Made by a program: the position numbers and the translations under genes. 64,000 nt of DNA from the NCBI GenBank assembly GCA_964500725.1, contig CAZCNP010000005.1, positions 6,348 to 70,347 on the forward strand, written 5' to 3'. Below, in pieces: positions 1,100-55,399 of this stretch (its first letter is position 1; every line of letters begins with the position of its first letter). A model generated the notes under the pieces. It was not told where the DNA came from, searched no databases, and worked only from the letters and a program-made list of their open reading frames with translations. The DNA comes from an uncultured Gammaproteobacteria bacterium. Lineage in GTDB: Bacteria > Patescibacteriota > Microgenomatia > Daviesbacterales > UBA10151.

Positions 1100-1926
1100 A
1101 GAAGTTCTAATATCTTGCTATGCAGAATATTATTTGATGCCAGCATTTCTGATTGGAATACATCCCATTTATCTCCAGCAGGTGTAGTTACTTTGCCTCC
1201 AGCTTTTTCTATCAGCAAAGAAGATGCTGCCACATCCCATGGTTTTAGACCTGAGTGGAGATATATATCTATTCTACCTCTGGCAAGACTAGCAAGATCT
1301 GCTACAGCAGAACCCATACATTTTATTTGCCTAACATGGGTTGCGATATTACCAAGCCATCGTACAACATCAAGTCTTTGTTCCAATACCCAACCCCAAT
1401 CACAAGCAAGCACAGTTTCGTTTAAATCTTTTGTAGTGGAAACATGAATGGGTTTTCCGTTTAAAAATGCTTCTTTTTTCTCTGCCTGTGCCCAATATAG
1501 ATCATTTGTGATAGGAGCATATATAACTCCCAATTTAGGTATGCCTTGATCTACCAAACCTATTGATATAGCAAAGTTTGCATTACCTCTGGAAAAGTTA
1601 ACTGTCCCATCAAGAGGGTCAATAATCCATAAATTGTCTAGTTCCTTAAAAGATGAATAATCTTTAGGGGAGGCCTCTTCACCTAAAATGGGGAGCGTAG
1701 GATATTGTTGTTGTAAGTTTTCTTTCAGAAAAGCTTCTACTTCCAAGTCTGCTTGAGTTAAAACATCCACCCCACCTTTTGATCTGGAAGTAAATTTACC
1801 TGAAGTAAAATATTGTTTTAAAATATCTCCTGCCTGAGCAGCTAATTTTAATGAATATTCCCTAGCCTCATTTAGATCAATTTCTTTTGTCATATTCTGC
1901 AAAATTCCATAGATGGTTCTAACCAT
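1096..1926 (-). CDS. inositol monophosphatase / FBPase family protein
   Basis: WIIDPLDGTVNF motif and overall IMPase fold signature; 276 aa. Confidence 0.75.
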   Translation of the reverse strand: MVRTIYGILQNMTKEIDLNEAREYSLKLAAQAGDILKQYFTSGKFTSRSKGGVDVLTQADLEVEAFLKENLQQQYPTLPILGEEASPKDYSSFKELDNLWIIDPLDGTVNFSRGNANFAISIGLVDQGIPKLGVIYAPITNDLYWAQAEKKEAFLNGKPIHVSTTKDLNETVLACDWGWVLEQRLDVVRWLGNIATHVRQIKCMGSAVADLASLARGRIDIYLHSGLKPWDVAASSLLIEKAGGKVTTPAGDKWDVFQSEMLASNNILHSKILELL

Positions 1927-3341
1927 TTTCTTCCATCTTGTTCTATTAATTCATCTGCTGCTTTAGGTCCCCAAGTTCCAGGTTTATATATGTGAGGTTT
2001 TCTTTTGCTAGCAGTCAGAGGATCTATAAATGCCCACTGGGCTTCTACTTCCTCTGCATCATTAAAGAAAGTATGATCACCTCTGATGGTATCAGCCAGC
2101 AACCTTTCATAAGGATCTGGGATATAGTGGCTGTGAGGATCAATTCTATAACAATACTGCATATACTCTGAATCAAAGCTAATTTGGTGCCCTGGCTTTT
2201 TGGCTAATATTTTAAAAACAATTCCCTCATTTGGCTGGATTCTATAAATTAAAACATTTGGCTCATCCTCATGACCCATCCCCTTAAATAGATGATTAAT
2301 AGGATTTTTAAAAACTATGGAAATTTCTGTAGCTGTTTGCTGAAGTTTCTTTCCGGCTCTTATATAGATTGGCACATCGGCAAACCTTTCAGATTTTACA
2401 AAGGTCTTTAAGGCATAAAAAGTATCTGCTGTAGAGTCTGGGGATACATTTTCCTCTTTTTGGTAGTTTTCATATTGACCAAAGACCACCTTTTCTGGTA
2501 AAGGAGTTAAGCTTTTTAAAATTTTGAGTCTTTGAGCTGTAATAGCCTTACTGGTAAATTTTTCTGGAGCATCCATGATGGAGAAGGCTAACATTTGCAG
2601 CTGATGGTTTTGTCCTACATCCTTTAAAGCTCCAACAGCATCATAATATCCACCTCTTTTGCCTATACCAAAATCTTCTGAGGCTGTAATTTGGATATGA
2701 TCAACAAATTGTTTGTTAACCAAAGGCTCAAAAATATCATTAACAAACCTAAAAGTTAGGATGTTTTGCAGGGTTTCTTTGCCCAAATAATGGTCTAGCC
2801 TGAAAATTTGGTCTTCTGTAAAGTAGGTAAGCAGTAGTTTATTTAAGGCTTTAGCAGAAGGCAAATCATTACCAATTGGCTTTTCAATCATCAGCCTGAC
2901 CCAGCCTTTATCTTGCTTGTTTAAGTTATTGTTCTGCAAGTGTTCTAAAACAGAATGATAAAGCTCTGGATAAGTAGCCAGATAAAAAATTCTGTTGCTT
3001 TCTTTAAGGGTTTTTTTGATCTTCTCATAAAGGTCTTGTTCCGTGATATCACCGTTTATATATTTAAACCTATTACACAGCCTTTTAAATACCTCCTGCT
3101 TGATTTCATGTTTGTGATGAATATTTTCCAGGTGCAATACGTAATCCAGATAATCCCGAAACTCTTTTACAGACATTTCTCTTCTGGCTATGCCTGCAAT
3201 ACTCATATCTGAGGCAAGTAAACCTTTTTCTTCCATATCATAAAGGGCTGGAATAAGTTTGATTTGGGCTAAATTGCTGGTAATGCCAAAGATAATCAGA
3301 GCATAATCTTCCATAGGGACATTTTGGCTTATTGACACCAA
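1890..3341 (-). CDS. zwf: glucose-6-phosphate 1-dehydrogenase. True start may be the internal Met (MEDYALIIFG) about 9 codons downstream.
   Basis: RIDHYLGKE active-site motif, IFGxTxxLA N-terminal NADP motif, 483 aa. Confidence 0.9.
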   Translation of the reverse strand: MVSISQNVPMEDYALIIFGITSNLAQIKLIPALYDMEEKGLLASDMSIAGIARREMSVKEFRDYLDYVLHLENIHHKHEIKQEVFKRLCNRFKYINGDITEQDLYEKIKKTLKESNRIFYLATYPELYHSVLEHLQNNNLNKQDKGWVRLMIEKPIGNDLPSAKALNKLLLTYFTEDQIFRLDHYLGKETLQNILTFRFVNDIFEPLVNKQFVDHIQITASEDFGIGKRGGYYDAVGALKDVGQNHQLQMLAFSIMDAPEKFTSKAITAQRLKILKSLTPLPEKVVFGQYENYQKEENVSPDSTADTFYALKTFVKSERFADVPIYIRAGKKLQQTATEISIVFKNPINHLFKGMGHEDEPNVLIYRIQPNEGIVFKILAKKPGHQISFDSEYMQYCYRIDPHSHYIPDPYERLLADTIRGDHTFFNDAEEVEAQWAFIDPLTASKRKPHIYKPGTWGPKAADELIEQDGRKWLEPSMEFCRI

Positions 3342-5676: not shown

Positions 5677-6648
5677 TTAACGTCTTACAAGCAGTACGGC
5701 GTTTGGAATACCCCTTCCTGGCCCGGCCTTATACCCCTCATACCAGAGGGCTGTTGAGCCTCCTTGATCTAAATTTAAGGCTGAATCCATACCTAAAGCT
5801 TTTAATACCTTGGCTGAATCACCCATTGAAGCGCTGTAGACTATGCCAATATAGACCATATTACCTTTGCTGGCTATAAAGGTTCTGGCTGCTTTTCCAC
5901 CGAATTTGGGCTCATTGGGGGCCTCTGTGAAGCTAATATTGCTTCCTGCAACAAGTAGAGGATAATTGGCTATCACACTATCCACACCTGTATCTCTGCC
6001 CCACTCCAAAGACCTTCCGACAAATCTTGAGGATCCTGCTGAAAATATAGCTGCTGGAACTGTGGAGTAAACATTATTATCAGAATTAAAGTAGTGTTTA
6101 TTCTTATTCATAAGGAGTGAATCAAAAGAATTGGTTTTTCCAGCGCAGCTTGAATAATCTGCAGGACAAAAGTATGAACCATTAATTCCAGCAAAAGCTC
6201 CATTTCGGGCAACATAATCTCCTAAAGACAAAACTGGGCAATTGTTGCCACAGTCTGATTCTGAAGCAGTATCTATAATAACTTTGGTAGAGTTTAAATC
6301 TGCAGCAATTATAGCAACAGTGTAGTTTTGCCCATCAACATTGACTGTTTGGCGGGAGTACCCGGCTCCAGGGGGAACATTATTTACTACTACTGGTTGA
6401 GGTGTGGGGGTAGGAATTGGAGTTGGTGCCAGTGTAGCTACAGGTTCTGGTGAAGATGTAGGTACAGGAGTGGGTGTTGGAGTAGGAGTTGGTTTAAAAT
6501 TGGGTAGTGCAGCCAGATTTGCCAGGTTTTTTTGAGAAGAATTAATAGAGTTGCTGGAAATTATTTTGAGAGCTACTGCAGAGGATATTACAGCCAGTAT
6601 AGATATCAAGATTACTGGCGCTAGGCCTTTTTGGTTAAGAATTTTCAT
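5677..6648 (-). CDS. secreted protein with Pro/Thr-rich linker and C-terminal globular domain (unknown function)
   Basis: N-terminal signal/anchor, PTPTPTPTPVPTSSPEPVATLAPTPIPTPTPQP linker, 323 aa. Confidence 0.4.
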   Translation of the reverse strand: MKILNQKGLAPVILISILAVISSAVALKIISSNSINSSQKNLANLAALPNFKPTPTPTPTPVPTSSPEPVATLAPTPIPTPTPQPVVVNNVPPGAGYSRQTVNVDGQNYTVAIIAADLNSTKVIIDTASESDCGNNCPVLSLGDYVARNGAFAGINGSYFCPADYSSCAGKTNSFDSLLMNKNKHYFNSDNNVYSTVPAAIFSAGSSRFVGRSLEWGRDTGVDSVIANYPLLVAGSNISFTEAPNEPKFGGKAARTFIASKGNMVYIGIVYSASMGDSAKVLKALGMDSALNLDQGGSTALWYEGYKAGPGRGIPNAVLLVRR

Positions 6649-7657: not shown

Positions 7658-7798
7658 TGTTTCTTACACTTTTAATTCTAGTAAAATAATCATGGGATTG
7701 CAAATTTGTATATTATTCTTCTATCATAAGGATGATATAATCGTTCCGCGATTACATCGCTTCACTTCTTGTATCGCAAGCGATATAATCGTATCCAC

Positions 7799-8035
7799 AT
7801 GAGTACGCAAGATATTCTAAATATAGTATTAATTATATTTCTTCTGATAGTTACAGGTGTGGTTGTTGCTATAGCTGTCTTTCTTATTAAAGCATTAAAA
7901 TCTATTGCCTCACTGGCGCAGTCTTTGGAAGATACGACCCAGAGTATAAAAGATAGAGTCCAAATGAGATTTTTAACTGCTCTTCCTTCAGTTTTGATTG
8001 CTTTAGCAAGTAGAATTTTTAAAAGAGGGAGGTGA
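7799..8035 (+). CDS. DUF948/YtxG-like small membrane stress protein. ORF-track start at 7769 is a TTG inside the promoter; ATG at 7799 preferred.
   Basis: Single N-terminal TM helix then charged coiled coil. TATAAT at 7784-7789 sits about 9 nt upstream of ATG 7799 (leaderless-like). Followed by YtxH-like gene as in the B. subtilis ytxGH arrangement. Confidence 0.45.
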   Translation: MSTQDILNIVLIIFLLIVTGVVVAIAVFLIKALKSIASLAQSLEDTTQSIKDRVQMRFLTALPSVLIALASRIFKRGR

Positions 8036-25435: not shown

Positions 25436-25555
25436 TTTGAGTAGGAAATTATCTGATAGTTCGATTCCTATGTCTTCGAAATTTAGTTTCATATAGCTTA
25501 CTCATTAGTAGGAATGGGGTTGCTTACTTCCAAATTTATAAGGCAGCTGTGTATA

Positions 25556-25948
25556 TTAAAGATCAGATTGGGGAGTAAAGTGTAACTCAGGAGGAATGTC
25601 TACCCTGGCTTTTTCTTCCAGTGTTTCCAGCCTTTGTTCTGCTTTCCTGATATTAGTATCATTTGCTTGATATGAATCAGCATAACCTTTGATTGTGCTT
25701 TCAAGCTCCACTGTTGCTGCAGTACTAGCATCAACTCTTTCATTTAATCTCTTAAGTCCTGTATCTGGATCATCTAATTTTTTACCTAAATCATCAAGTT
25801 TTTTATTCATTACAGATAACTGATCTCTCATCAGTTGAATTGAAGCTCCTTGGTTTGTTCTATTTATCTCTGACAAATCAACTTTATGTTTTATAATCTC
25901 AAGAAGTTCTTTAAGCCCATCAATTTTTTTGGAATCATCATCTGTCAT
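25556..25948 (-). CDS. small coiled-coil protein (paralogous family member 3 of 3)
   Basis: 130 aa. Shares TIKGYADSYQAN...RLETLEEK...IPPELHFTP block with ORF 11463..11726. Confidence 0.4.
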   Translation of the reverse strand: MTDDDSKKIDGLKELLEIIKHKVDLSEINRTNQGASIQLMRDQLSVMNKKLDDLGKKLDDPDTGLKRLNERVDASTAATVELESTIKGYADSYQANDTNIRKAEQRLETLEEKARVDIPPELHFTPQSDL

Positions 25949-26202
25949 TCTTTAATAGTAATTAATCGAATAATAAAAAACAATTAGGATTTTATATATC
26001 AAACTAGCCAAAATCTGGTAGGTTAGTTGTTTAAGCTTCTTAAGCGATCTTAATTTTTCTTGAAGCGGGTGAGGCCTACCCGCATCGCTTCGCATAGCGA
26101 GGCGGGCAGGGGAGTAAAGAAACTTACTTTTTCTTTCAGAAAAAGAGCGGACAGCTTCCCACTACGTGGGGCGCATTCCAACTACCTACCTACCCTTTAA
26201 AC

Positions 26203-26232
26203 AAAAAACCGATCTCAAGGATCGGATTTTTT
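26203..26232 (-). terminator. bidirectional rho-independent terminator (A6-CCGATC-TCAAG-GATCGG-T6) immediately 3' of tRNA-Gly
   Basis: aaaaaaCCGATCtcaagGATCGGatttttt seen directly. Confidence 0.65.
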
Positions 26233-26240
26233 GATTTAAG

Positions 26241-26312
26241 AGCGGGTGAGGGGAGTCGGACCCCTTACGTCCACTTTGGAAAAGTGGCATTCTACCGGTG
26301 AATTACACCCGC
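26241..26312 (-). tRNA. tRNA-Gly (anticodon TCC)
   Basis: Reverse complement GCGGGTGTAATTCACCGGTAGAATGCCACTTTTCCAAAGTGGACGTAAGGGGTCCGACTCCCCTCACCCGCT; anticodon loop TTTCCAA. Confidence 0.9.
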
Positions 26313-26342
26313 ATTATTTCTTTGTCAAATAACTTTTATTTA

Positions 26343-26492
26343 ACTCCTAAGTGTTTTATCGAAACTTCGTTTCGTGGCATTCTTCCTGGGATAACTTCTA
26401 AATTCTAAGATGTATGCTGAACGCATACTTGTTTGTTGTTATCCCGTTAAAGTCGGTTTACGACTTTAACCCCCTGAATTACACCCGCATTC
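26343..26492 (-). other. tRNA-Gly-derived structured element: copy of the tRNA-Gly 5' acceptor/D-arm (GCGGGTGTAATTCA) and D/anticodon junction (GAATGCCAC), interrupted by about 100 nt forming several perfect hairpins
   Basis: Minus-strand read: GCGGGTGTAATTCAGGGGG-[GTTAAAGTCG/CGACTTTAAC 10-bp stem]-[GGGATAAC...GTTATCCC 8-bp long-range stem enclosing GTATGC/GCATAC hairpin]-AGGAAGAATGCCAC-[CGAAAC-GAA-GTTTCG]. Does not fold as a complete tRNA. Confidence 0.35.
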
Positions 26493-26532
26493 AATAGTGA
26501 TATTTTAATTTTAAATGGAAAAAAACGCAAGA

Positions 26533-26862
26533 TTAGAGTAGTTCTTCAATCTTTGCTGCTAGGATAAAATCATTTTCAGATAAGCCTCTGATATGGTGTG
26601 TAGTTAAAGAAATTACTACTTTATTGTAGTAAATATACATATCTGGATGATGCCCCTCTTCCTCAGCTATCTCTGCAACTCTATTTACAAACTGCATAGC
26701 CTCTTTAAAATCCTTAAATTTAAACTCATGTTTTATGGTTCTATTACTGGATACCTCCCAAGGAAGTTTTAGCTCCTTGAGGAATTTCCCATATTCCTCA
26801 GGTTTTAATGGGGGAGTCCCTATCTCACAAGGCACACATTTTTTATTACTTAATGAATCCAT
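26533..26862 (-). CDS. phhB: pterin-4a-carbinolamine dehydratase (PCD/DCoH)
   Basis: EEGHHPD signature ([EDKH]-x-H-H-P) and overall PCD length (109 aa). Confidence 0.85.
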   Translation of the reverse strand: MDSLSNKKCVPCEIGTPPLKPEEYGKFLKELKLPWEVSSNRTIKHEFKFKDFKEAMQFVNRVAEIAEEEGHHPDMYIYYNKVVISLTTHHIRGLSENDFILAAKIEELL

Positions 26863-26956
26863 ATTTAAAGATTATACCTAAATAAAGAGAAATTCTGTAA
26901 GCGAAATCACTTTAAGTTTTTACAATATTCTTAAATAGATTTGCTAAACTACAAAT

Positions 26957-27601
26957 ATGATTCCTTTAAGGGATTCACACCCAGCTGGCAGATTTCCTTT
27001 TTGGGTGGTTTTAATAATTGCTATAAATATTTATGTTTTTTTTCTGGAGCTAACTGCCCTAAATCCAGATGATTTAATTGGCAAATATGCCTTAATTCCC
27101 AGCCTTGTAAACCCTTTAAATCCAATCAGTTGGCTTCCCTTTATTACCAGCCAGTTCCTGCATGGAGGCTTTATTCATATTATCTCTAACATGCTATTTT
27201 TGTGGGTATTTGGGGATAATGTGGAAGATAGAGTGGGGTTTTTGCTATTCCCTTTCTTTTACCTGGCTGCAGGGGCTGCAGGAGGGCTTACTCAATATAT
27301 TCTAAACCCAGATATAAATATTCCTATGTTGGGGGCCTCAGGAGCTATTGCAGGGGTTTTAGGTTTTTACTTTACAAAATTTGGGCATCATACTGTTAAA
27401 ACTTTTATCCCTGTGTTTGGATTTTTTACTATTATTAATGTTCCAGCCTCAGTAATGTTATTTTATTGGTTTTTTGCCCAACTTTTTGCTGGAGCCGCCA
27501 GTATCAGTCTAGCAGCAACAGAAGCAGGAGGCGTAGCCTTTTTTGCCCATATTGGGGGCTTTGCCTTTGGCTGGATAGTAGGGAAATTATTTCCTACTTA
27601 A
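26957..27601 (+). CDS. rhomboid family intramembrane serine protease (copy 1)
   Basis: FLHGGFIHIISNMLFLWVFGDNVE (loop/TM2 motif), GASGAIAGVLG (catalytic Ser), AHIGGF (catalytic His); 214 aa. Confidence 0.85.
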   Translation: MIPLRDSHPAGRFPFWVVLIIAINIYVFFLELTALNPDDLIGKYALIPSLVNPLNPISWLPFITSQFLHGGFIHIISNMLFLWVFGDNVEDRVGFLLFPFFYLAAGAAGGLTQYILNPDINIPMLGASGAIAGVLGFYFTKFGHHTVKTFIPVFGFFTIINVPASVMLFYWFFAQLFAGAASISLAATEAGGVAFFAHIGGFAFGWIVGKLFPT

Positions 27602-27876
27602 TTACAATAGTTTGGAGCCTCAGAATTTGCTTCTCCCTTTGCTCCAGTTGATTGGCCCGGGTTATTTGATGACACCGGTCTACCAACAGGATCAGAATAT
27701 GTATCTATACCGTGATTTACCCCGCTAAAATACTCAGGGTTGCCTACAGCGCTAGACTGATATGATACACATTCATCAGCTGGAACAAAAACATCATTTA
27801 TAGCAAATGCTTGTGAAACAAATAATCCAAGAGCAGTTATAGCTGTTGCTGTCCCTGCTATTAGTTTAGTTTTCAA
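27598..27876 (-). CDS. small secreted protein
   Basis: Signal peptide MKTKLIAGTATAITALGLFVSQAFA; 92 aa; two Cys. Confidence 0.3.
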   Translation of the reverse strand: MKTKLIAGTATAITALGLFVSQAFAINDVFVPADECVSYQSSAVGNPEYFSGVNHGIDTYSDPVGRPVSSNNPGQSTGAKGEANSEAPNYCN

Positions 27877-27967
27877 TATTTCTCACCCCCTTGCTTTGCA
27901 GAAATATTACTTTAGCGCCTTGAGAAGAGAGTGAAAAATAAGTAAGAGATAGAAAAGAATCCTCTAA

Positions 27968-28042
27968 TGGTCGGGGTGGAGAGAATTGAACTCTCTACAT
28001 CTGCGTCCCAAACGCAGCGGTCTACCGATGACCTACACCCCG
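27968..28042 (-). tRNA. tRNA-Pro (anticodon TGG), CCA encoded
   Basis: Reverse complement CGGGGTGTAGGTCATCGGTAGACCGCTGCGTTTGGGACGCAGATGTAGAGAGTTCAATTCTCTCCACCCCGACCA; anticodon loop TTTGGGA. Confidence 0.9.
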
Positions 28043-28187
28043 AAATCCCTTTATGTGGGCTAACTTCAATTATTATATTTCGCCTTCGGCAATAAATTGC
28101 TGTTAACCCGTTGAATTATCATTTAGATAATTCAACAGTCTACCATAAGTAGACAGATAGTAAAAGAGATGTTAAACTCCCAAAGTT

Positions 28188-29159
28188 ATGGTGGTTGAGG
28201 CTCAAAGAGTAAGGATACACAAAAGTGTTCTTGTTAGGAATAGAAGGCCAGGTTTGCCTGAGCTGCCTGACGATGGCTTCATCTTCGATCAAACCTTTAT
28301 TGGATTAAATGCCTTTTTAAGGCTTACTCCAGCTGACCTTGCCCCATATAAAACTATCTCTGCCGAGGCAGGGGATGGCACAGATCAACGGCTCTTCCGC
28401 CTAGTCCATGCTCTAAAATTGCCTCCTGATAAAATTCCCACATTTTATTTGAAGGGTGGAGGTAGCGCTAACACATTATTTAGAGGACTAACGTATCTAA
28501 CTCCTGTTCCTATTCCAGAAGAGCAGCAAGAATATTTTTCCCCCGATAAATACACTGCATATAGATATAAACCCCCTGTTTTAATCCATGATACTGGCAA
28601 GATGGACCCTTGCGCCTATCTTATCAGTCTTGGACATCTGGGAGTCAGAACCACAATGATAAAAGACGATTTAACTAAAAATGATCCAGGCAAAGATATT
28701 CAAGCTATTTATGTTCAAGCAGCCATACAATCGTTAAAACAATTAGGAAATAGAACTAGACCTACTAATATCCAATATCGCGTCAATGGACAAACATATG
28801 ATTTAGCCCAAAACCATGTTGCAGCTTTTGAAACAATAGCTGTGCCTGTACTAGCCACTTTTGAAGTGAAAAAGAAAATTGCTGAAAATCAAGTAAGGTT
28901 AATCTTAATTCGTGCCAATACAAGCTCAGCTTTATATACAAAGTATTTACTTTCTCTAGTAGTAGGCAGCAGACTAGGGATTGATGCTGCAATAAAGATG
29001 AGCCTTGTTGAAACAATCGATGCAGATGAAATTTCGGTTAGCCCAGATTTATCAAAAAAACCTAATTGCTGCACAGATGGCCAGCAAGAAACCCTCACAG
29101 ATCAACAAATCCTAATTAAAAGAAGCCCTGAGAGTTTTCTAATTATCACTCCTAGATAA
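28188..29159 (+). CDS. hypothetical protein (orphan; noticeably higher GC than neighbours) lying between tRNA-Pro and tRNA-Leu
   Basis: 323 aa, no motif recognised by eye. Start codon uncertain (first ATG codon of ORF). Confidence 0.4.
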   Translation: MVVEAQRVRIHKSVLVRNRRPGLPELPDDGFIFDQTFIGLNAFLRLTPADLAPYKTISAEAGDGTDQRLFRLVHALKLPPDKIPTFYLKGGGSANTLFRGLTYLTPVPIPEEQQEYFSPDKYTAYRYKPPVLIHDTGKMDPCAYLISLGHLGVRTTMIKDDLTKNDPGKDIQAIYVQAAIQSLKQLGNRTRPTNIQYRVNGQTYDLAQNHVAAFETIAVPVLATFEVKKKIAENQVRLILIRANTSSALYTKYLLSLVVGSRLGIDAAIKMSLVETIDADEISVSPDLSKKPNCCTDGQQETLTDQQILIKRSPESFLIITPR

Positions 29160-29193
29160 CCTCTGTAGGACTTTACTCCAATCCTTTTAAGGG

Positions 29194-29275
29194 TGCTGGT
29201 GAAGGGAGTCGAACCCTTATGCCTTTTGGGCACTCGCTCTTAAGGCGAGCGTGTATGCCATTCCACCACGCCAGC
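29194..29275 (-). tRNA. tRNA-Leu (anticodon TAA), long variable arm
   Basis: Reverse complement GCTGGCGTGGTGGAATGGCATACACGCTCGCCTTAAGAGCGAGTGCCCAAAAGGCATAAGGGTTCGACTCCCTTCACCAGCA; anticodon loop CTTAAGA. One acceptor-stem mismatch. Confidence 0.85.
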
Positions 29276-29356
29276 ATGTTGAGCTATTGTACTAAAAACT
29301 AACGATAATTTAAATATTGACAATTTGTAAATGGTAGATTATTCTAAGTCCCTAAT

Positions 29357-30025
29357 ATGTCAGCAACCAGAAAAAAACTTTTCTTTTTAGCTCTCTTTTC
29401 TATAGTAGGATTTATTAGCCTTCAGATTCCTTTTAACAAAATCGTGGGCTCAAATGTATCTTTTACCCTGTTTGATTTCTTTGCTCCAATGGCTGGAGGA
29501 TTTTTAGGTCCTGTATTTGGAATTATTTCAGTATTTGGGGTTGAAATTGTAAATATGCTAGTAAAAGGCTCCCCTTGGACTACTGGTTCTATTATTAGAC
29601 TTTTCCCAACCCTTTTTGCTGTTTTATATTTTGCCCTTACTTCAAAGAAAAAACTAAATGCAAAATGGATGCTAGCTATCCCAGTTCTTTGCATTGCTGT
29701 CTTTATAGCACACCCAATTGGCAGACAAGTCCCTTATTATGCTTTAATGTTTTGGTTTATTCCTGTTATTGCTTACTTTAAGAGAGATAACCTCTGGGCA
29801 AGAAGCTTAGGCACAACTTTTACAGCCCATGCTGTAGGGGGAGCAGCCTGGATCTGGGCTTTTAACCTGCCAGCTCAGGTTTGGCACAACCTAATCCCAT
29901 TGGTTATAGCAGAAAGATTGCTCTTTGCCACAGGTATTGCTGCTTCCTATATTTTGGTAAAACATACCCTTAATTTCTTAGCATCTAAAAAGCTACTTCC
30001 AAAACTGGATTTTGCTACCTCCTAA
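29357..30025 (+). CDS. polytopic membrane protein (possible ECF-transporter substrate-binding S component)
   Basis: About 6 TM helices, 222 aa, immediately upstream of a RibD-C reductase-domain gene. S-component call is tentative. Confidence 0.35.
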   Translation: MSATRKKLFFLALFSIVGFISLQIPFNKIVGSNVSFTLFDFFAPMAGGFLGPVFGIISVFGVEIVNMLVKGSPWTTGSIIRLFPTLFAVLYFALTSKKKLNAKWMLAIPVLCIAVFIAHPIGRQVPYYALMFWFIPVIAYFKRDNLWARSLGTTFTAHAVGGAAWIWAFNLPAQVWHNLIPLVIAERLLFATGIAASYILVKHTLNFLASKKLLPKLDFATS

Positions 30026-30031
30026 TAAAGG

Positions 30032-30664
30032 ATGCTCTACCCAAATCTAAAATTCCCTAAAAAAGCAGGCAGACCATTTTTTTATACTAATTTTGTTGCT
30101 ACCCTTGATGGAAAAATTCAAGTCTTAGAACACCAAAAGGATTACTGGCCAATAGGTTCAAAAGTTGATCATGATACTTTAATGGAACTTAGAGCCTATG
30201 CAGATTGCCTTATTCATGGCAGCCACACAGCAAAAGAGGCAGCTAGAGCTACCCTAGAAAGCCTTAGCAGCCCCTCTTTTAAAGCATTAAGGAAAAAGCT
30301 GGGTAAAGATCCAGTATTGCCATATTATGTAGTAACCAATCATCCTGAAAATTTCTCTAATTTAGCTTCTAAAATTACTACTGTGCCACACAATTTAACT
30401 CTTTTATCAAAGAATTTATATAAAAAGGGGGTTAGGAATGTACTTATGGAGGGTGGTCCCACCCTTTTAGGATCTTTTCTGAAAGCCAATTTAATAGATG
30501 AGGTATTTTTAACCATTGCTCCTAAAATCTTTGGCAGCCAAAAGACAGCAACCTTAACCTTAGTTGAAGGGACCCTTTTTCCTCCTCAAAGTATCAAAAA
30601 ACTTAAACTTCTTTCAGTAAAGCCAATTAATAATGAGATTTTCCTAAGGTATAAAGTAATTTAA
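30032..30664 (+). CDS. RibD C-terminal domain / dihydrofolate reductase-like reductase
   Basis: FVATLDGKI and NVLMEGGPTLLGSFLKANLIDEVFLTIAPKIFG match PF01872-type reductase domain. Confidence 0.65.
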   Translation: MLYPNLKFPKKAGRPFFYTNFVATLDGKIQVLEHQKDYWPIGSKVDHDTLMELRAYADCLIHGSHTAKEAARATLESLSSPSFKALRKKLGKDPVLPYYVVTNHPENFSNLASKITTVPHNLTLLSKNLYKKGVRNVLMEGGPTLLGSFLKANLIDEVFLTIAPKIFGSQKTATLTLVEGTLFPPQSIKKLKLLSVKPINNEIFLRYKVI

Positions 30665-31044: not shown

Positions 31045-31839
31045 TTAAAGTTTACCGAAGGCACCAGATTCAATTGCGTCCCTGACATCTAATTCAGTAA
31101 TCTTACGAATTAACCTTTCGTCAAAGACATTTATAACCATCTTCTGTAATACAGTCACTGATTCACCAATCAGTTCAAGTCCTCTAGCAAATCCACCTTC
31201 AATCCGAGCATTTCTGGCCCAAGCAATATCCTTTAGCATTGCTCCAGCTCCTCTGTCTTTCAAACGATCAAGCACACCGAAACCAAAAACTGATTCTATA
31301 TCTGCCCGAACTTCGGTGTCTGTTCGATTATCATCCACATCTGCAAAATCTTTAATCGCCCTTGCTGCAATTTCTTGGGCAACTCCTAAAACAGATTCAG
31401 CAGGCTTTAAGTCACCAATTAATATATCTTCACCAGCATTCTCTCCTTGAGGTAACGATAATCTCTGTGTTGACACATTCTTTTTAGAACTTATTACTGA
31501 AGCTGTTGACAATCTAACTCCATTCCGCTTATATCTTTTTCTCAACTCTGCCACTTGGGAAGGAACAATGTTTGCTATTCTAAGAGGTGTATATTTTGCG
31601 CTTTGAGTTATTGCAGTTGCTGCTCCCTCACTTAATTGAATAAAACGCGGATCATCCTGCATTTGTTCAGGAGTAAAATCTTCAGTTAACACATTCCATA
31701 TATACGAGGTCCTAAATCCAGGCTTGCCCCCCAATAGACACGATCGAACTATACCAACTTCAGCAACGAGCCCTTGATATTGAGCCACAGCGGTATAATA
31801 TTGCTCCTTTGCCGGATTTATTTCTGCTGTACTAGACAT
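31045..31839 (-). CDS. hypothetical protein co-regulated with the adjacent Fic gene. Start moved to the Met 12 nt downstream of TATAAT; 264 aa, no His residues.
   Basis: Own sigma70-like promoter (TTGCAA-16-TATAAT) read on minus strand, overlapped by triple ATCRCGCAA repeats. No recognisable domain. Composition richer in GC than flanks. Confidence 0.4.
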   Translation of the reverse strand: MSSTAEINPAKEQYYTAVAQYQGLVAEVGIVRSCLLGGKPGFRTSYIWNVLTEDFTPEQMQDDPRFIQLSEGAATAITQSAKYTPLRIANIVPSQVAELRKRYKRNGVRLSTASVISSKKNVSTQRLSLPQGENAGEDILIGDLKPAESVLGVAQEIAARAIKDFADVDDNRTDTEVRADIESVFGFGVLDRLKDRGAGAMLKDIAWARNARIEGGFARGLELIGESVTVLQKMVINVFDERLIRKITELDVRDAIESGAFGKL

Positions 31840-31888
31840 ATTATTAGCCTGATTATACACGATCAATTATCATTTGCAAGCACTATTG

Positions 31889-53158: not shown

Positions 53159-55399
53159 ATGAAGCAGATTATCGCAACAATCTTGATAATTGTCCTGATC
53201 ATTAGTCTGATTGTTGCTGCTTTCACTATCAACCAGGTTGAAAATGAAAGCCAGAGACTCAAATCAGACCTCCAGCACCGTTCAACCTTGCTTGCAGAAA
53301 GCTTAAGGGAAACCATTGAGCCTAATTTTATAAATAAATCAGACGTCTATCTGCAGAATGTGCTGGAAAGGTTCACTACCAAAGAAAGATTGGCAGGACT
53401 AGGGGTATATGACAATAAAGGTAATATGATTGTTGCCTCATCTACAGTAACCGAAGCAACTTTATCCGCCCAGGAAGTAATTGCCAATACCATGGATGCT
53501 GATAAAGCAACCGGAGATTATATTACTTTAAACAATAGAAATATATACATGCTGGCCGTTCCTCTGCATGAAAATAAAAGTGTGGTGGGAGCAATGATGG
53601 TGATGCAAAATGCAAGCTATATAGATGACCGCTTAAATGAAATATGGAGAAATAACCTCTTAAGGCTGGCAATCCAGGCAGGACTGCTTTCTGTAGCAAT
53701 ATTGCTTTTGATTAGATGGCTTATCTACACACCAATAAAAAATCTGGTTGAGTCTTTAAAAACTGCAAGAGCAGGAGGCAGTACGCTAAATTCTAAAAGA
53801 ACAACCAACTCATTATTCTTCCGTCCGCTTGTCAATGAAATTACTAATATTAGAAGAAGTCTGCAAGAGGCCCGTTCCACAGCAAGCGAGGAAGCAAGAC
53901 TCAGGCTAGATGAAATTAATTCCCCATGGACAGCTGAAAGGCTAAAGGAATTTATCAAGGATATTTTAAAAGATAGAACTATTTTTATGGTTTCAAACCG
54001 TGAACCTTATATTCATACCAAAGATGGAGGAAAAATCAATTATTACATGCCTGCAAGCGGACCTATAACAGCAATTGAACCTGTAATGCAGGCTTGCGGT
54101 GGAGTCTGGATAGCCAATGGAAGCGGGGATGCGGACAAGCTGGTTGTTGACAAGTACGACAAGATTAAGGTTCCGCCGGAAGAGCCAAAATACACCCTCA
54201 AACGTATCTGGCTAAGTGAGGAAGAAGAATCAGGATATTACTTTGGCTTTTCAAATGAGGGATTATGGCCGCTTTGCCATATCGCTCATAACCGGCCGAC
54301 CTTTAAAAAAGAAGACTGGGACCAATACCAAAAAGTTAATCAAAAATTTGCTGATACTATCGTTGCTGAAATAAAAAATCAAGAAAGACCAATTGTTTTA
54401 GTACAAGATTATCAGCTTGCTTTAGTTCCTAAAATGATTAAGGCGCAAAAACCAAGCGCAGTAGTAGGCCTTTTTTGGCATATTCCTTGGCCCAATCCTG
54501 AATCCTTCAGTATATGTCCTTGGAAAAAAGAAATTCTTGAAGGGATGTTAGGAGCAGACCTAATAGGCTTTCATACCCAGCTTTACTGCAATAACTTTAT
54601 TGAAACAGTAAGCCGGGAACTTGAGTCTTTGATTGACTTTGAGCGGTTTACAATTACCCGAAACAATCATGAATCCTCAATCAAACCTTTCCCAATCAGT
54701 ATTGCATTTTCAAACGTCAATGGTTTGGATCAGGAAACAATGGAAAAGAACAAACAGGAATCAGACAATCTAATCAAAAGCTTGGGCATTAAAACAAAAT
54801 ATATCGGACTCGGAGTAGATAGGCTTGATTACATCAAAGGAATCCCAGAGCGTTTAAAGGCAATTGAGATCTTTCTAATAAAAAATCCTAAATATAAAAC
54901 CAATTTTACCTTCATTCAGATTTCACCTCCTTCAAGAACTAAGATAAAAAAGATGAGGGAGCTGGCAGAAGAAGTAGAGAAGGAAGTTGAACGGATAAAT
55001 GCTGCATTTAAAATAGGCAACTGGAGACCTATTGTATTTTTGAAAAAACACCATGATCATAAAGAGCTTCAGAAGTTTTATTCAGCCGCTGATTTCTGCC
55101 TAGTTACATCTGTACATGACGGGATGAATCTGGTAGCAAAAGAATATGCAGCAGCCAGATATGATGAAAGAGGAGTTTTAGTGCTTAGCCAATACACAGG
55201 CGCCTCACGGGAACTTAAGGAAGCGTTGATTGTAAACCCTTATAATGCAGAACAAACAGCAGATGCTATACGGGAGGCTTTGGAAATGACTCCAAAAGAA
55301 CAGGCAAAAAGAATGAAGGAAATGAGAGAAACTATTAAAAATAACAATGTTTACAGATGGTCTGCAGAACTGCTAAGGACAATTGTGAATTTAGGATGA
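53159..55399 (+). CDS. otsA: trehalose-6-phosphate synthase (GT20) fused to an N-terminal membrane-anchored sensor-like module (TM - ~140-aa extracytoplasmic domain - TM - HAMP-like linker)
   Basis: C-terminal 470 aa carry GT20 motifs (GGVWIANGSGDA, LWPLCHIAHNRP, LVQDYQLALVP, VGLFWHIPWPNPE, HDGMNLVAKEY). N-terminal 270 aa have two TM helices (res 5-23, ~165-190). Confidence 0.8.
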   Translation: MKQIIATILIIVLIISLIVAAFTINQVENESQRLKSDLQHRSTLLAESLRETIEPNFINKSDVYLQNVLERFTTKERLAGLGVYDNKGNMIVASSTVTEATLSAQEVIANTMDADKATGDYITLNNRNIYMLAVPLHENKSVVGAMMVMQNASYIDDRLNEIWRNNLLRLAIQAGLLSVAILLLIRWLIYTPIKNLVESLKTARAGGSTLNSKRTTNSLFFRPLVNEITNIRRSLQEARSTASEEARLRLDEINSPWTAERLKEFIKDILKDRTIFMVSNREPYIHTKDGGKINYYMPASGPITAIEPVMQACGGVWIANGSGDADKLVVDKYDKIKVPPEEPKYTLKRIWLSEEEESGYYFGFSNEGLWPLCHIAHNRPTFKKEDWDQYQKVNQKFADTIVAEIKNQERPIVLVQDYQLALVPKMIKAQKPSAVVGLFWHIPWPNPESFSICPWKKEILEGMLGADLIGFHTQLYCNNFIETVSRELESLIDFERFTITRNNHESSIKPFPISIAFSNVNGLDQETMEKNKQESDNLIKSLGIKTKYIGLGVDRLDYIKGIPERLKAIEIFLIKNPKYKTNFTFIQISPPSRTKIKKMRELAEEVEKEVERINAAFKIGNWRPIVFLKKHHDHKELQKFYSAADFCLVTSVHDGMNLVAKEYAAARYDERGVLVLSQYTGASRELKEALIVNPYNAEQTADAIREALEMTPKEQAKRMKEMRETIKNNNVYRWSAELLRTIVNLG

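Follow-up and report, generated by a model that had tools for sequence, protein, structure and literature searches.

Taken as a whole, the locus between tRNA-Pro and tRNA-Leu in the window (the 64,000-nucleotide stretch of DNA analysed here) is probably best explained as an old insertion of a single lipid-kinase-like gene into a pair of tRNA genes. The gene (28188–29159, plus strand) encodes a 323-aa, two-domain protein with a predicted diacylglycerol-kinase/sphingosine-kinase fold. It lies in a segment of 1148 bp (28043–29190) that is identified as inserted by comparison with related genomes.

ARAGORN predicts five tRNA genes in the window, including tRNA-Pro (anticodon TGG; 27968–28042, minus strand; CCA encoded; 64 bits to Rfam tRNA) and tRNA-Leu (anticodon TAA; 29191–29276, minus strand; 52.8 bits), which would be the first gene of the ancestral pair. 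The single long ORF between them is the kinase gene. It is oriented opposite to both flanking tRNAs and convergent on the 3' end of tRNA-Leu, with 31 nt between its stop codon and that gene. An Rfam search of positions 25500–30500 returned three tRNAs and no further RNA element. The arrangement described in the original prediction, a plus-strand ORF between minus-strand tRNA-Pro and tRNA-Leu genes, is therefore borne out by ARAGORN, Rfam and the ORF list.

The ORF is a genuine, expressed-looking gene, on the basis of codon-position GC content like that of other genes, full-length homologues and conserved family motifs. Only two close homologues were found among 5.8 billion clustered proteins, P0002 (46% identical) and P0003 (47% identical), both full length. 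When 1.84 billion representatives were searched exhaustively with a profile, 38 clusters were found, most of them of about 310–350 aa and matching end to end. The earlier description of the gene as an orphan was thus close to the mark. A protein-pattern scan for close relatives found none in GTDB species genomes and none in JGI metagenomes, and the window contains no paralogue of the kinase. The identical 323-aa protein is encoded in seven Logan assemblies. That the ORF is a pseudogene, or a reading frame arisen by chance in a long spacer between tRNAs, is an idea with nothing to favour it beyond the missing database name. It is refuted by the homologues, the family alignment and the AlphaFold model: the homologues are full length with conserved motifs, the predicted structure is of high confidence, the promoter is conserved and the identical protein recurs in at least seven independent assemblies. 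The probability left to it is negligible.

Against Pfam and NCBIfam, the protein reaches no threshold; there is no DAGK_cat match at E<=1 and no NCBIfam match. The original prediction had seen no recognisable motif, but GDGT (62–65), GGGSAN (90–95) and DGQ (297–299) are all present, and these are motifs of the diacylglycerol-kinase/NAD-kinase superfamily. In an alignment of 32 family sequences, G62, D63 and G298 are invariant and G64, G92, T96, D297 and R312 nearly so, and there is an N-terminal DNRR motif (N18-R19-R20 in the window protein). The first glycine-rich loop, GGDGT in the family consensus and A-G62-D63-G64-T65 in the window protein, is in register with the GGDGT of NAD kinase, AGK and BmrU. 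The second, GGGSANT at 90–96 (G90-G-G-S-A-N95 in its first six residues), has the superfamily form P-x-G-[ST]-x-N as its counterpart. A family member aligns with BmrU across both loops with identical spacing, GGGSANT falling opposite IPGGTCND. Towards the C-terminus is the motif N-x-C-x-D297-G298-(E/Q), followed by the conserved R312. The form DGE is the family consensus, and DGQ (D297-G298-Q299) is found in the subclade of the window protein, where it aligns with the ADGQ of the A. fulgidus NAD kinase.

Pfam DAGK_cat is matched by 15 of the 32 aligned members (best E 4.5e-6, flagged 'weak') and NAD_kinase by three. A profile search of the PDB found nothing with a three-sequence alignment. With the family profile, the first 17 of 20 matches are NAD kinases, AGK, YegS, DgkB, SphK1 or BmrU; GGDGT and DG(E/Q) line up with their counterparts there. 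As all nucleotide-binding and catalytic motifs are retained, the protein is likely to be an active kinase. These proteins form a small, rare and unannotated new family within a well-known kinase superfamily.

Structure prediction required the wider alignment. With only three close homologues, AlphaFold gave a pLDDT of 32; with 32 sequences, the pLDDT is 95.5 and the pTM 0.92. The predicted fold comprises an alpha/beta N-domain and a beta-sandwich C-domain, as in the DAGK/SphK/YegS superfamily. In Foldseek comparisons, the model matches SphK1 with E 3e-12 (TM 0.66), BmrU/DgkB/YegS with E of about 1e-10 to 3e-8, and NAD kinases with E of 1e-6 or weaker; SphK1 also gives the best overall superposition. 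On these grounds the protein is probably a soluble ATP-dependent kinase with two domains, belonging to the lipid-kinase branch, and SphK1 is the closest solved structure to the model. Since the best fold match is to SphK1 and to lipid kinases rather than NAD kinases, the substrate may be a lipid or other hydrophobic alcohol, for example a long-chain base or a diacylglycerol-like molecule. Two observations run against a lipid kinase: the window protein falls below every Pfam and NCBIfam threshold, and its subclade has DGQ where most lipid kinases of the family have DGE.

Under a different assignment, these reduced genomes would have a divergent NAD kinase, the present protein, in place of the canonical NadK. 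The best PDB sequence-profile matches are indeed archaeal NAD kinases (1suw and 1z0s, E about 0.002), with GGDGT and DGQ aligned. The DGQ of the window's subclade is as in NAD kinases, and a glucose-6-phosphate dehydrogenase encoded in the window could use NADP. The specific loop of NAD kinases is NxGxLGFL. NadK/PpnK and the window protein have GGDG in common, but the second loop of the latter is GGGSANT, not NxGxLGFL, and NAD kinases are not the closest structural neighbours of the predicted model. A replacement NadK is accordingly considered quite improbable.

The likeness to known lipid kinases has clear bounds. Eukaryotic SphK1 (PDB 4l02, 3vzb-d, 4v24) is the best fold match, yet it shares 11% sequence identity with the window protein, which is bacterial. 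By sequence search alone SphK1 is reached at E of about 0.7, and the resemblance is one of overall superposition. The bacterial enzymes DgkB, BmrU and YegS (DAGK_cat, PF00781) superpose over 35–45 fewer residues than SphK1; they also differ from the window family in that the latter has its own N-terminal DNRR, has GGGSANT in place of PxGT and lies under the Pfam threshold. We know of no sphingolipid pathway in Patescibacteria, which are thought to scavenge lipids, whereas Caulobacter makes its own sphingolipids. Caulobacter CpgB, presented in the title of its report as an evolutionarily distinct bacterial ceramide kinase (bioRxiv 10.1101/2023.05.01.538943; PMC10331486), serves here only as a precedent for bacterial sphingolipid phosphorylation. 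Literature searches found no paper linking Patescibacteria or Daviesbacteria with this type of kinase.

A scan of GTDB species genomes with the tRNA-Leu pattern recovered 11 loci, mostly from Ca. Daviesbacteria. In nine of these 11 related Patescibacteria genomes, tRNA-Leu is followed by tRNA-Pro on one strand, with spacers of 0, 4, 4, 5, 6, 9, 16, 40 and 75 nt, compared with 1148 bp in the window. Most loci have the same neighbours on the Leu side: a Fic protein (54–87% identity), an RRM protein (62–94%), RibD_C (56–62%) and an ECF-S-like protein (65–78%), with further shared genes beyond this block. No member of the kinase family was found in the relatives' loci by tblastn or HMM. Locus L020 has the tRNA-Pro most similar to that of the window, and its neighbouring genes are among the most similar too. 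It has the window type of tRNA-Pro and Fic and ECF-S proteins at 87% and 78% identity, yet its Leu-Pro spacer is 9 nt and it lacks the kinase gene.

Upstream of tRNA-Leu in most relatives there is a promoter-like block, TTGTCAATA...TGnTACAAT. Its counterpart in the window (29286–29314, minus strand; TTTAAA-17-TACAAT), located by consensus scan and by comparison with the relatives, is the predicted promoter of the tRNA-Leu(-Pro) unit. Most relatives, with their short spacer and one promoter block ahead of tRNA-Leu, seem to transcribe Leu and Pro together. There is no convincing terminator after tRNA-Leu in the window. Transcripts of the window tRNA-Pro, 1.15 kb away, would start either at a new promoter within the insert or come from read-through that runs antisense to the kinase gene. 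A candidate for the former, a match to the consensus only, is TAGACT-16-GATAAT (28115–28142, minus strand, read from 28142 to 28115).

The kinase gene is not confined to the window at this site. Contig L011 (1245 bp), which encodes P0002, starts inside tRNA-Pro (30/31 nt identical) and ends inside tRNA-Leu (57/59). A relative with a 46%-identical protein thus has the gene at the same position. Likewise, six of the seven contigs with the identical protein break off within the two tRNA genes, at a length of only about 1.2 kb. Such short contigs would be expected if the tRNAs are shared with co-occurring relatives and the segment between them is not.

Upstream of the ORF is a putative promoter block (28137–28178, plus strand) located by consensus scan and conserved in L011. 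In it, the -35 element TAGACA (28150–28155) shares sequence with the right arm of a palindrome, GTCTAC-N5-GTAGAC, and is followed by a 17-nt spacer and an extended -10 element, TGTTAAACT, ending at 28178 (TAGACA-17-TG-T-TAAACT in the consensus scan). Over the 29 nt that hold the palindrome and the -35 (28138–28166), 28 positions match L011. Similarity extends to the -10 region; elsewhere the spacer has diverged, and so has the protein. A DNA scan of metagenomes for the conserved block found nothing. The candidate tRNA-Pro promoter shares the palindrome with the ORF promoter, and is not conserved in L011. The ATG of the ORF lies 9 nt after the -10 and has no Shine-Dalgarno sequence. This short distance, together with the missing Shine-Dalgarno sequence, suggests that the kinase mRNA is probably leaderless. 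Family genes in L008, L023 and L026 are preceded by the same arrangement.

As nine relatives have a tight Leu-Pro pair without the gene, the pair is most parsimoniously ancestral and the kinase gene a lineage-specific insertion that splits it. The direction is by parsimony, with nine genomes without the gene against two with it, of which one is represented by the 1.2-kb contig L011. The gene could conversely be ancestral at this site and have been deleted independently in most Daviesbacteria, so that the tight tRNA pair is the derived state. Such a history would fit the site and promoter common to two lineages whose proteins are 46% identical, the frequency of gene loss in reduced genomes and the single-gene insertions and deletions that are common in this block. 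It would also require many independent, near-precise deletions, leaving spacers of 0–16 nt in seven genomes, and would have to account for the close relative L020, with its 9-nt spacer. Further, the tRNA-Leu promoter block in most relatives fits an ancestral Leu-Pro co-transcription unit, and the other close homologues of the kinase are at unrelated loci. We regard repeated deletion as unlikely, and an insertion into the pair as the better reading.

The original prediction held that the gene is compositionally distinct, with visibly higher GC than its flanks. This does not stand. The GC content of the ORF is 0.394, and that of the window 0.365. Among the 50 window ORFs of at least 150 aa (mean GC 0.368, sd 0.025, range 0.308–0.424), the kinase ORF ranks ninth (z=+1.09). 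Its GC3 is 0.285 (z=+0.46), and it ranks 20th of 50 in synonymous codon-usage distance to the other window genes. GC at codon positions 1, 2 and 3 is 0.506, 0.392 and 0.285, as in other window genes. The small excess is thus in positions 1 and 2, not 3, and reflects amino-acid content. The slightly raised GC was considered as a mark of foreign origin and rejected, as the excess lies outside codon position 3. Family members have GC of about 0.37–0.42 in low-GC hosts of differing GC (0.32–0.40), which is a further argument against that origin.

No integrase, recombinase, transposase or other mobility gene was found in or next to the segment. The neighbouring genes in the window encode a pterin-4a dehydratase, a rhomboid protein, a 92-aa secreted-looking protein, an ECF-S-like protein and RibD_C. 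A search of 27400–29900 for an att-like direct repeat of a tRNA end gave only repeats of 12–17 nt, at chance level, and similarity between the window spacer and tRNA-Pro does not exceed that of shuffled sequences (21 of 300 shuffles reach the observed score). The L011 insert contains 18 nt that copy the 5' end of tRNA-Pro in part (16/18), with no Rfam match for this tRNA-like fragment. It is the sole hint of target duplication. PADLOC found nothing at the locus, and in PHROGs the only match, to phrog_8777 (function unknown), is weak and covers the GGDGT region; there is thus no phage or defence signature of substance in the segment.

These results bear on whether the segment is a recent, compositionally foreign islet that entered by site-specific integration at a tRNA gene. 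As in integrase-mediated tRNA genomic islands, the segment adjoins tRNA genes, directly follows tRNA-Leu on its 3' side and is missing at this site in the nine relatives; the tRNA-Pro 5' copy in L011 could be a remnant of target duplication. Unlike such islands, it has no integrase, no att repeats in the window and no compositional signature in GC, GC3 or codon usage, and no PHROG or PADLOC match of substance. It also consists of one gene, placed within a single tRNA pair, and is an ancient insertion, to judge by its ameliorated composition and by the same site being occupied in a relative with only 46% protein identity. Recent integration is consequently very improbable. The original prediction of an islet at tRNA genes holds in so far as the gene is a lineage-specific insertion: it is absent between tRNA-Leu and tRNA-Pro in nine of 11 relatives and present in L011, and so is not conserved at this position across relatives, while its composition is typical of the genome. 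A recent or integrase-type islet, and with it the 'typical' tRNA island of that prediction, is not supported by the features listed above.

Elsewhere, the kinase gene shows no fixed association. The P0003 gene adjoins GroEL, and that of P0009 lies between PfkB and M20 peptidase genes. Nine family contexts besides the window have no neighbour in common, the gene being monocistronic as a rule. It thus appears to behave as a self-contained accessory cassette of patchy distribution, mostly in low-GC contexts. An HlyIII/PAQR neighbour of P0010 is an isolated case.

The region around the tRNA pair is itself fluid. Two relatives have other insertions at the Leu-Pro junction: 2.1 kb in L012, where tRNA-Pro is inverted and an orphan ORF of 230 aa is present, and at least 860 nt in L019, which has no tRNA-Pro there. 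Between tRNA-Pro and tRNA-Gly, each genome compared has different genes, and RibD_C, the ECF-S-like gene and an ORF between RRM and Fic are variably present among relatives. As single-gene presence/absence differences are common throughout the block, the tRNA location may be partly incidental rather than mechanistically meaningful.

For the favoured reading, an old insertion into the tRNA pair, the following course may be proposed. A cassette of about 1.15 kb, consisting of the gene and its own promoter, would have entered the few-nucleotide tRNA-Leu(TAA)/tRNA-Pro(TGG) spacer in a Daviesbacteria-like lineage, perhaps by illegitimate insertion. Its composition would since have ameliorated, with no mobility machinery left. 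Conjecturally, spread, exchange or loss could then occur by homologous recombination, for which the tRNA genes on either side, nearly invariant as they are, would serve as homology arms. A bolder proposal, which we consider doubtful, is that the family is an unrecognized bacterial counterpart of sphingosine kinase that phosphorylates a host-derived long-chain base or similar lipid in lipid-scavenging Patescibacteria. Its gene would be a leaderless single-gene cassette, swapped by way of tRNA-Leu and tRNA-Pro as portable homology arms, not as integrase targets.

The locus, a conserved tRNA pair interrupted by a protein gene with no mobility gene present, is a clean example that bears on the movement of single genes in tiny genomes. 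The kinase family, otherwise ordinary, is a moderate lead on lipid handling in Patescibacteria. To our knowledge, candidate-phyla-radiation bacteria are unable to make their own lipids, and membrane remodelling in them is poorly understood. If the fold-based reading is true, these bacteria have a small new family of SphK1-like lipid kinases, and a lipid kinase gained and lost among lineages in this way would offer a concrete handle on that remodelling.

In four relatives of the Daviesbacteria-like genome, comparison of the tRNA-Leu/tRNA-Pro junction reveals different insertions. That of L012 is 2.1 kb in length (L012 3262–5415) and contains an inverted tRNA-Pro together with a gene for a 230-aa orphan protein, the C-terminus of which is duplicated in part. 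L019 carries an insertion of at least 860 nt without tRNA-Pro (L019 1–861). GC-rich spacers with a hairpin occupy the junction in L016 (75 nt, L016 203–277) and L022 (40 nt, L022 1581–1620). The relatives L014, L015 and L018 (GTDB records) possess the syntenic block along with a tRNA pair of the Daviesbacteria type, and their protein identity to the window is 67–89%; their record titles, 'uncultured Gammaproteobacteria bacterium', look like mislabelling.

L011 is a 1245-bp metagenomic contig with a member of the kinase-like gene family at the same site. Its inserted segment includes an 18-nt copy of the tRNA-Pro 5' end, identical at 16/18 positions (about L011 140–160, in minus-strand sense), which precedes the true tRNA-Pro by approximately 130 nt and adjoins the conserved promoter block. 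No tRNA is called at this fragment by ARAGORN or Rfam; only 1 of 300 shuffles scored as high. The fragment could have been left behind by the insertion event. In the tRNA-Leu(TAA) of the window, C6 (window 29271, a base outside the Logan contigs, assemblies with the identical window protein) is opposite A67, so that the acceptor stem contains a C·A mismatch. Each of the nine relatives in the comparison has the T6-A67 pair instead.

The genes between tRNA-Gly and tRNA-Pro (window 26313–27967) encode a pterin-4a dehydratase, a rhomboid protein and a 92-aa protein with an N-terminus resembling a signal peptide. All three lack counterparts in the relatives' loci, where the tRNA-Pro to tRNA-Gly intervals hold other genes. 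The interval between the RRM-protein and Fic genes looks like a second variable slot. In the window it contains a 273-aa orphan ORF (31045–31866, minus strand) with a GC content of 0.405 and the fourth-highest codon-usage distance, for which a Pfam search gave no match, and which is particular to the window among the relatives' loci compared. It may encode a partner of Fic. The gene for the RRM protein adjoins that for Fic in L016 and L017, while the slot is occupied in L015 by a 377-aa ORF, transposase-like by eye at its N-terminus, and in L019 by an unrelated 248-aa ORF.

Elsewhere in this small, low-GC, Patescibacteria-like genome there are glucose-6-phosphate dehydrogenase and trehalose genes (window 1890–3314, minus strand, and 53159–57048, plus strand). 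The trehalose-6-phosphate synthase (746 aa) has approximately 275 N-terminal residues beyond the GT20 match, and its gene adjoins that of a 563-aa trehalose-phosphatase protein.

An extended -10 element (TGnTAnAnT) is situated 7–10 nt 5' of the ATG of the kinase-like genes in the window (28150–28190), L008 (about 7760–7780), L023 (about 7980–8000) and L026 (about 5980–6000). Because the element is so close to the start codon, and a Shine-Dalgarno sequence is absent before these four genes, their start regions suggest family-wide leaderless mRNAs. In one lineage only, an HlyIII/PAQR-family gene is located directly upstream of the family member P0010 (L024 3643–5366). The HlyIII/PAQR family includes ceramidase-like hydrolases. 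The pairing, seen in that lineage alone, is suggestive for an enzyme resembling sphingosine kinase.
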